This document shows, piece by piece, positions 7,781 through 55,854 of a stretch of 64,000 nt of DNA. A model generated the notes under the pieces. That model was given only the letters and a program-made list of their open reading frames with translations. It did not search any database and was not told where the DNA came from. Position numbers and translations under genes: made by a program. Each line of letters begins with the position of its first letter. The first letter of the stretch is position 1. Source of the stretch: Octopus vulgaris (Eukaryota); assembly GCA_951406725.2 (NCBI GenBank), contig OX597815.1, positions 117,304,001 through 117,368,000 of the forward strand. Reading direction: 5' to 3'.

Positions 7781-55854
<48,074 letters not shown>

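Follow-up and report, generated by a model that had tools for sequence, protein, structure and literature searches.

A likely constitutive, apparently lineage-gained microexon in the outer-pore loop of the Octopus vulgaris beta-TRPA channel

Among microexons of the neural splicing programme, those targeted by eMIC in the fly are marked by 3' splice regions of very low strength, extended AG-free zones, a UGC close to the AG and CUAAY branch points, and ion channels are enriched among them (PMC8797185). Of SRRM3/4 microexons, 74–79% carry the UGC motif, which is not an absolute requirement (10.1101/2024.09.17.613571). Alternative splicing in octopus peaks in neural tissue, yet it is not unusual among invertebrates (PMC9699675). 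For the outer pore of TRP channels, the closest described cases are the turret of TRPV1, where the second residue, N604, is a glycosylation site and deletion of residues 603–612 lowers heat responses and leaves capsaicin responses unaffected (PMC3707783), and human TRPA1, in which glycosylation of the S1-S2 loop tunes agonist sensitivity (PMC5052711). Comparison of two cryo-EM states of fly TRPA1 shows little movement of the loop that joins S5 to the pore helix (PMC10073219).

A cephalopod channel of this family has been recorded as QHX41566.1/MN081859, a transcript-derived protein named beta-TRPA with a length of 1148 aa, a mass of 129,958.8 Da and a pI of 5.28 (PMC13402157, supplementary table). 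The same accession corresponds to the de novo transcript c31382_g11_i1, listed as a single isoform of 1148 aa matched to C. elegans trpa-1 in a table where TRPC and TRPM genes have several isoforms each (PMC12919962, supplementary rows). Row 48 of the former table gives the O. sinensis beta-TRPA a length of 3028 aa, whereas the O. vulgaris and O. bimaculoides proteins have 1148 each (PMC13402157). This long entry possibly stems from a gene model fused with another or from a mistake in the table. Expression was reported for samples labelled TIP, SEM, SUB and OL, which we take to be arm tip, supra-oesophageal mass, sub-oesophageal mass and optic lobe. The octopus beta-TRPA transcript reached 8.24 CPM in TIP and about 2 in each of the other three (PMC12919962). 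The available parts of these two papers hold no discussion of an exon, a loop insertion or splicing of this gene, the strings 'splic' and 'exon' are absent from the main text of PMC13402157 as available, and a search of mostly open literature, with subscription papers thinly covered, returned no paper on the exon described here.

The window (the whole 64-kb stretch of O. vulgaris DNA that was analyzed) contains most of this gene. A search with the S5 exon found three NCBI proteins, P0002 (Octopus vulgaris), P0001 (O. bimaculoides) and P0003 (Argonauta hians), none of which carries an isoform suffix. P0002, an 1148-aa TRPA1 homolog labelled O. vulgaris, maps onto the exons of the window with the microexon included, while its residues 1–92 had no match within the 64 kb. 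Its computed mass and pI (129,957 Da, 5.29), its length and the residues available for comparison, about the first 400, indicate that P0002 and QHX41566.1/MN081859 are probably the same inclusion protein; inclusion of the exon in QHX41566.1 is deduced from length and mass, an exon-skipped protein being expected to have 1139 aa. The architecture is that of a TRPA channel, with Pfam ankyrin and Ion_trans domains, a six-helix channel and, in the secondary structure of the model, a C-terminal coiled coil, and comparisons of both sequence and fold gave TRPA1 structures as the top matches. The closest proteins are annotated as 'TRPA1 homolog', and a tentative placement in the beta clade follows the agreement of length, mass and pI with the beta-TRPA entry of PMC13402157, on which the assignment rests, as the quick tree described below contained no known alpha-clade sequence. 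Features of the locus are collected in Table 1.

Table 1. Coordinates of the microexon and associated features, numbered from the first letter of the window.
Feature	Position	Strand	Description and basis
Host gene, 23 exon blocks	7783..55854	+	Encodes residues 93-1148 of P0002
Upstream exon, 201 nt	44864..45064	+	S4, S4-S5 linker and S5; protein mapping, contigs
Upstream intron, 740 nt	45065..45804	+	Contains a high-copy repeat near 45335-45480
Pyrimidine tract adjoining acceptor AG	45786..45804	+	No TGC closer than -52; no CT[AG]A[CT] within 60 nt
Microexon, 27 nt	45805..45831	+	Residues 944-952 of beta-TRPA (TRPA1 homolog), phase 0-0; protein mapping, three spliced contigs
N-x-S sequon codons (N945-N946-S947)	45808..45816	+	Sequence motif; putative site
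Donor GTAAGT	45832..45837	+	Weak exonic side; rank 19/22 among the gene's donors
Downstream intron, 2868 nt	45832..48699	+	Contains high-copy repeats near 48030-48430
Downstream exon, 177 nt	48700..48876	+	Pore helix, filter and S6; protein mapping, contigs

An earlier note, made from the letters of the window, had proposed a 27-nt, phase 0-0 exon between the S5 and pore-helix exons, and its coordinates, sequence and flanks agree with both P0002 and the spliced contigs described below. The reading frame is preserved whether the exon is included or skipped, as that note also held, since the upstream exon ends and the downstream exon begins in phase 0. With canonical AG/GT borders and a length in the 3–27 nt class (≤27 nt), it is a microexon by definition, and is far shorter than the other 20 mapped internal exons of the gene (69–219 nt). 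Splice sites were scored leave-one-out with position matrices built from the gene's own 22 junctions. The description of both sites as strong fits the acceptor, which ranks 8/22 and has 14 pyrimidines among 15 positions before an AG ending at 45804, better than the donor, which has a TTT exonic side and comes near the bottom of its own list when scored as a whole. The summed score of 15.66 was not reached by any of 1480 frame-preserving background AG..GT pairs of 3–30 nt in 44,901 intron bases, but the two best of these (15.19 and 14.86) came within one bit of it. Scoring therefore suggests that the microexon is the best candidate by a thin, non-decisive margin; what decides that the exon is real is the presence of its nine residues in a public protein, P0002, and of its 27 letters in three mRNA contigs. 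Elsewhere in the gene, the S5 exon has a tandem acceptor (AAG GAG, 44861-44866, +) of which the upstream AG is used by P0002 and the three contigs, use of the other AG would remove one glutamate, and the weakest splice sites by the same matrices are the donor at 39643 (-0.76) and the acceptor at 23966 (-0.51), both used in P0002.

The S5 exon was present in 20 of the 24 sequencing runs listed (8 studies), none of these 20 being recorded as RNA, and four runs, one per study, were examined; their contigs derive from mRNA because they are spliced. Three of the four (X3, X5 and X14) each gave one spliced contig, of 3325, 3826 and 4104 nt at depths of 21.5, 11.4 and 16.2, with exactly 27 letters between 45064 and 48700 and with 43092 joined to 44864. 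In the remaining run, X9, the assembly was fragmented, with pieces ending at 45063 and 48715 at a depth of 3–4, and was uninformative at the junction. The depth in the microexon bin was 2.89, 1.54 and 2.18 in X3, X5 and X14, against 2.89, 1.53 and 2.18 expected from contig depth x 27/201, and where the downstream exon begins the depth equalled contig depth x 29/201 in each. The bins are fully explained by one contig per run, which leaves no room for a second, skipping contig, and none joining 45064 to 48700 was found in the piece tables, bin depths and listed joints of the three informative runs. Inclusion is the dominant form in transcripts, and at the level of contigs the junction check proposed with the earlier note came out on the side of inclusion. 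As contigs drop rare variants and the tissues of the runs are unrecorded, minor or cell-type-specific skipping could have been missed by this 3/3 result. A skipped octopus form was likewise absent among the best 120 of 240 shorter-protein matches and the best 150 of 3009 matches to 50% representatives; P0004, 83% identical over the S5 exon, ends at the intron.

The window also contains repeats and putative mobile elements. In each of the four runs, the high-copy interspersed repeats of the flanking introns (approximately 45335-45480 and 48030-48430) had summed contig depths between 1e4 and 4e5. A 779-aa open frame at 2953-5292 (-), which we take to be reverse transcriptase-like with a C-terminal endonuclease and of the Penelope-like type, has partial copies nearby. 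The intron at 27869-34639 contains a 487-aa open frame at 30474-31937 (-), presumably reverse-transcriptase-like and from an RTE-like LINE, followed by a tandem-repeat region near 32000-34400. Two further segments, 3-299 (-) and 22515-22883 (-), are presumed to be mariner/Tc1 transposase-like fragments.

Among 247 related proteins, of which 9 were unscorable, the distance from S5 to the filter equalled the skipped length in 223/238, and in a more distant set of 117 proteins it did so in 90/116, with 25 longer and one shorter. Aligned with the octopus protein, human TRPA1 lacks nine residues at the insert site, between Q895 and D896 when counted along the alignment. Since nearly every relative outside the cephalopods is without the insert, the skipped length represents the ancestral state. 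Insert-like motifs were found in 3 of 364 proteins, and these are the three octopods; a quick tree of 29 selected rows groups them as a single clade (SH-aLRT 100) among lophotrochozoans that lack the insert. The expectation that annotation had missed the exon was wrong, as the insert is carried by the public proteins of all three species. In O. bimaculoides, whose whole protein is 97% identical to that of O. vulgaris, the 9-aa insert has one change (N-to-K) and retains the sequon, whereas Argonauta has a diverged 10-aa insert that lacks it; the inserts of O. vulgaris and Argonauta share 2/10 residues, against 81% identity over whole proteins. Conservation within cephalopods, another check suggested at the outset, is borne out for the insert and sequon in a second Octopus species and fails for the sequon and most of the sequence in Argonauta. 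To judge from the Argonauta protein, conservation of the insert across octopods does not extend to the sequon.

Five short ORFs, read as single contig exons (P0004, P0014, P0017, P0028 and P0362), lose homology exactly at the insert site, which points to an old phase-0 intron at that position. The simplest history would be one exonization event within this intron on the way to octopods. A squid, cuttlefish or nautilus orthologue was not recognised among the matches listed (best 120 of 240; best 150 of 3009), and the gain may be older within cephalopods than the octopods. Duplication of the edge of an adjacent exon and descent from a repeat within the window both lacked support as sources of the microexon, with best matches of 15/27 and no self-match over the exon. 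Drosophila TRPA1 (7YKR) has 7 extra residues of its own at the insert site, and unrelated insertions of 4 to 19 residues occur at the same S5-pore-helix site in P0141, P0221, P0234, P0243, P0247, P0363, P0364 and P0100. The extra sequence in P0149 and P0346 looks like intron read-through by gene callers.

The reading that best accounts for these data, to which we give a probability of about 0.72, is a lineage-gained, likely constitutive microexon whose product is a fixed, modest or near-neutral extension of the outer-pore loop. The proposed course of events starts from an exon spliced in as the dominant form and from an ancestral short loop, the exon being absent from nearly all non-cephalopod relatives. 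Exonization would then have taken place in the pre-existing phase-0 intron in the lineage leading to octopods, and would have been tolerated because multiples of three keep the frame and because the loop accepts insertions in several lineages. Recognition was probably by ordinary exon definition, through the pyrimidine tract and GTAAGT, and not by the neural eMIC/Srrm234 route. The nine residues would form a short predicted hairpin that lengthens the S5-pore-helix loop, and the loop appears to be under weak sequence constraint; the effect on the channel is likely either a fixed and modest adjustment of the outer pore or nearly neutral. Such an outcome is judged the likeliest because the sequence changes fast, Argonauta has lost the sequon and other lineages have acquired insertions here repeatedly.

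The earlier note had instead seen a splice switch, that is, a regulated cassette microexon that neurons or sensory cells would retain and other cells would skip, giving a short ancestral loop and a longer glycosylated one. We consider this unlikely. A 27-nt, frame-preserving exon with a weak donor is the kind of exon that could be switched, and a weak donor together with a short exon is usual for regulated exons; skipping restores the length found in most relatives, so the skipped product should fold, and ion-channel genes are a favoured class of fly eMIC target (PMC8797185). A minor form could also escape the contigs, and, with expression of the gene in sensory and nervous samples, a neuron-dependent exon could look fully included. 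However, all three informative runs, each from a different study, contain the inclusion form alone and no depth beyond it, the public proteins of three species carry the insert without an isoform suffix, and a de novo assembly of nervous tissue lists one isoform, of inclusion length (PMC12919962). The cis-elements expected of eMIC/SRRM4 targets, namely a weak 3' splice site, a UGC close to the AG and a branch point that is strong and displaced, were not those of this exon: its acceptor is of ordinary strength, its AG-free zone of 57 nt is usual for the gene (range 12–125), the nearest TGC lies at -52, and branch-type motifs of the form CT[AG]A[CT] are lacking within 60 nt of the acceptor. As far as these tested features go, their lack appears to count against a neural programme without being fatal to it. 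A narrower possibility is that the microexon, young and born within octopods, is left out only in some cells or conditions (non-neuronal arm cells, or with temperature), so that one gene would yield two sensors, one with the ancestral short loop and one with a longer glycosylated loop; this we regard as improbable.

A different alternative keeps the exon constitutive and gives the sequon the main role. An AlphaFold monomer model (105 sequences, mean pLDDT 85) has Drosophila TRPA1 as its best fold match and places S5 at 914-940, strands at 942-945 and 948-951, and the pore helix at 958-970; the two-strand hairpin it predicts at 942-951 is of low confidence (mean pLDDT 63 over 941-950). In TRP channels the loop after S5 is extracellular. 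The N945-N946-S947 triplet within it fits N-x-S/T (x not P), so the extracellular sequon first noted from the letters is indeed there, and it is kept in the second Octopus species. The model puts N945 at the hairpin tip, five residues past the point where S5 is predicted to end. Efficient glycosylation generally takes a spacing of 12–14 residues from the membrane. The five-residue spacing disfavours occupancy of N945 under that rule, N604 of TRPV1 provides a precedent for it, and a glycan on this Octopus-only sequon may or may not be present.

That an Octopus-selected glycan at N945 clearly tunes the heat, pH or calcium behavior of the pore, in the manner of the TRPV1 turret, seems doubtful. 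That the sequon survives the N-to-K change in O. bimaculoides is consistent with a degree of selection on it, and so weighs against a wholly near-neutral loop, but with two such close species the evidence for selection is weak. Its predicted position at the hairpin tip, N604 and the effect of turret deletion on heat responses in TRPV1 (PMC3707783), and the tuning of human TRPA1 agonist sensitivity by glycans (PMC5052711) all speak for such a role; on the other side stand the Argonauta insert with no sequon, the short distance from S5, and a sequon in the S1-S2 loop (N798 in O. vulgaris) that is already kept in all three octopods. As for a pseudo-exon, a chance AG..GT pair taken up by gene predictors, the near-equal scores of some intron pairs are all that favors it, and it is refuted by the spliced contigs from three studies, as well as being at odds with the matching insert in two other octopod proteins.

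The modest, constitutive extension favored here illustrates cleanly how a newly born exon reshapes the outer pore of a channel, here one that is a candidate nociceptor or thermosensor of cephalopods and whose transcript is highest in TIP. It also provides a natural comparison between channels with and without the nine residues, and between a loop with a sequon in Octopus and one without in Argonauta. Models built by homology to other molluscs would omit the exon and lead to the cloning of a form not seen in transcripts. Skipping in defined cells, if true, would be a notable regulatory finding; otherwise the significance is modest, and the exon, already in public sequence records, is an instance of a lineage-gained microexon and of the variable TRP turret.

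Set beside the known systems, the exon shares with eMIC (SRRM3/4, Srrm234) microexons its 27 nt, its preservation of frame and its place in an ion-channel gene of sensory and nervous tissue, but differs in that no skipping was seen in the three informative runs, the acceptor is ordinary, the tract adjoins the AG, and a nearby UGC or CUAAY-type branch consensus is lacking. With the TRPV1 turret it has in common a sequon a few residues into the post-S5 loop; TRPV1, however, belongs to another subfamily, its turret has 24 residues against the 9 added here, and its glycosylation and function are demonstrated, those of the octopus loop being putative. Drosophila TRPA1 (PDB 7YKR) likewise has an extension, of 7 residues, at the same site relative to human TRPA1, but it is of the alpha-TRPA clade, and its insert is unrelated in sequence and has no sequon in the aligned stretch. 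The cephalopod beta-TRPA itself (O. vulgaris QHX41566.1 and O. bimaculoides XP_014772761.1, in a C. elegans trpa-1-like clade according to PMC13402157) is the same gene.
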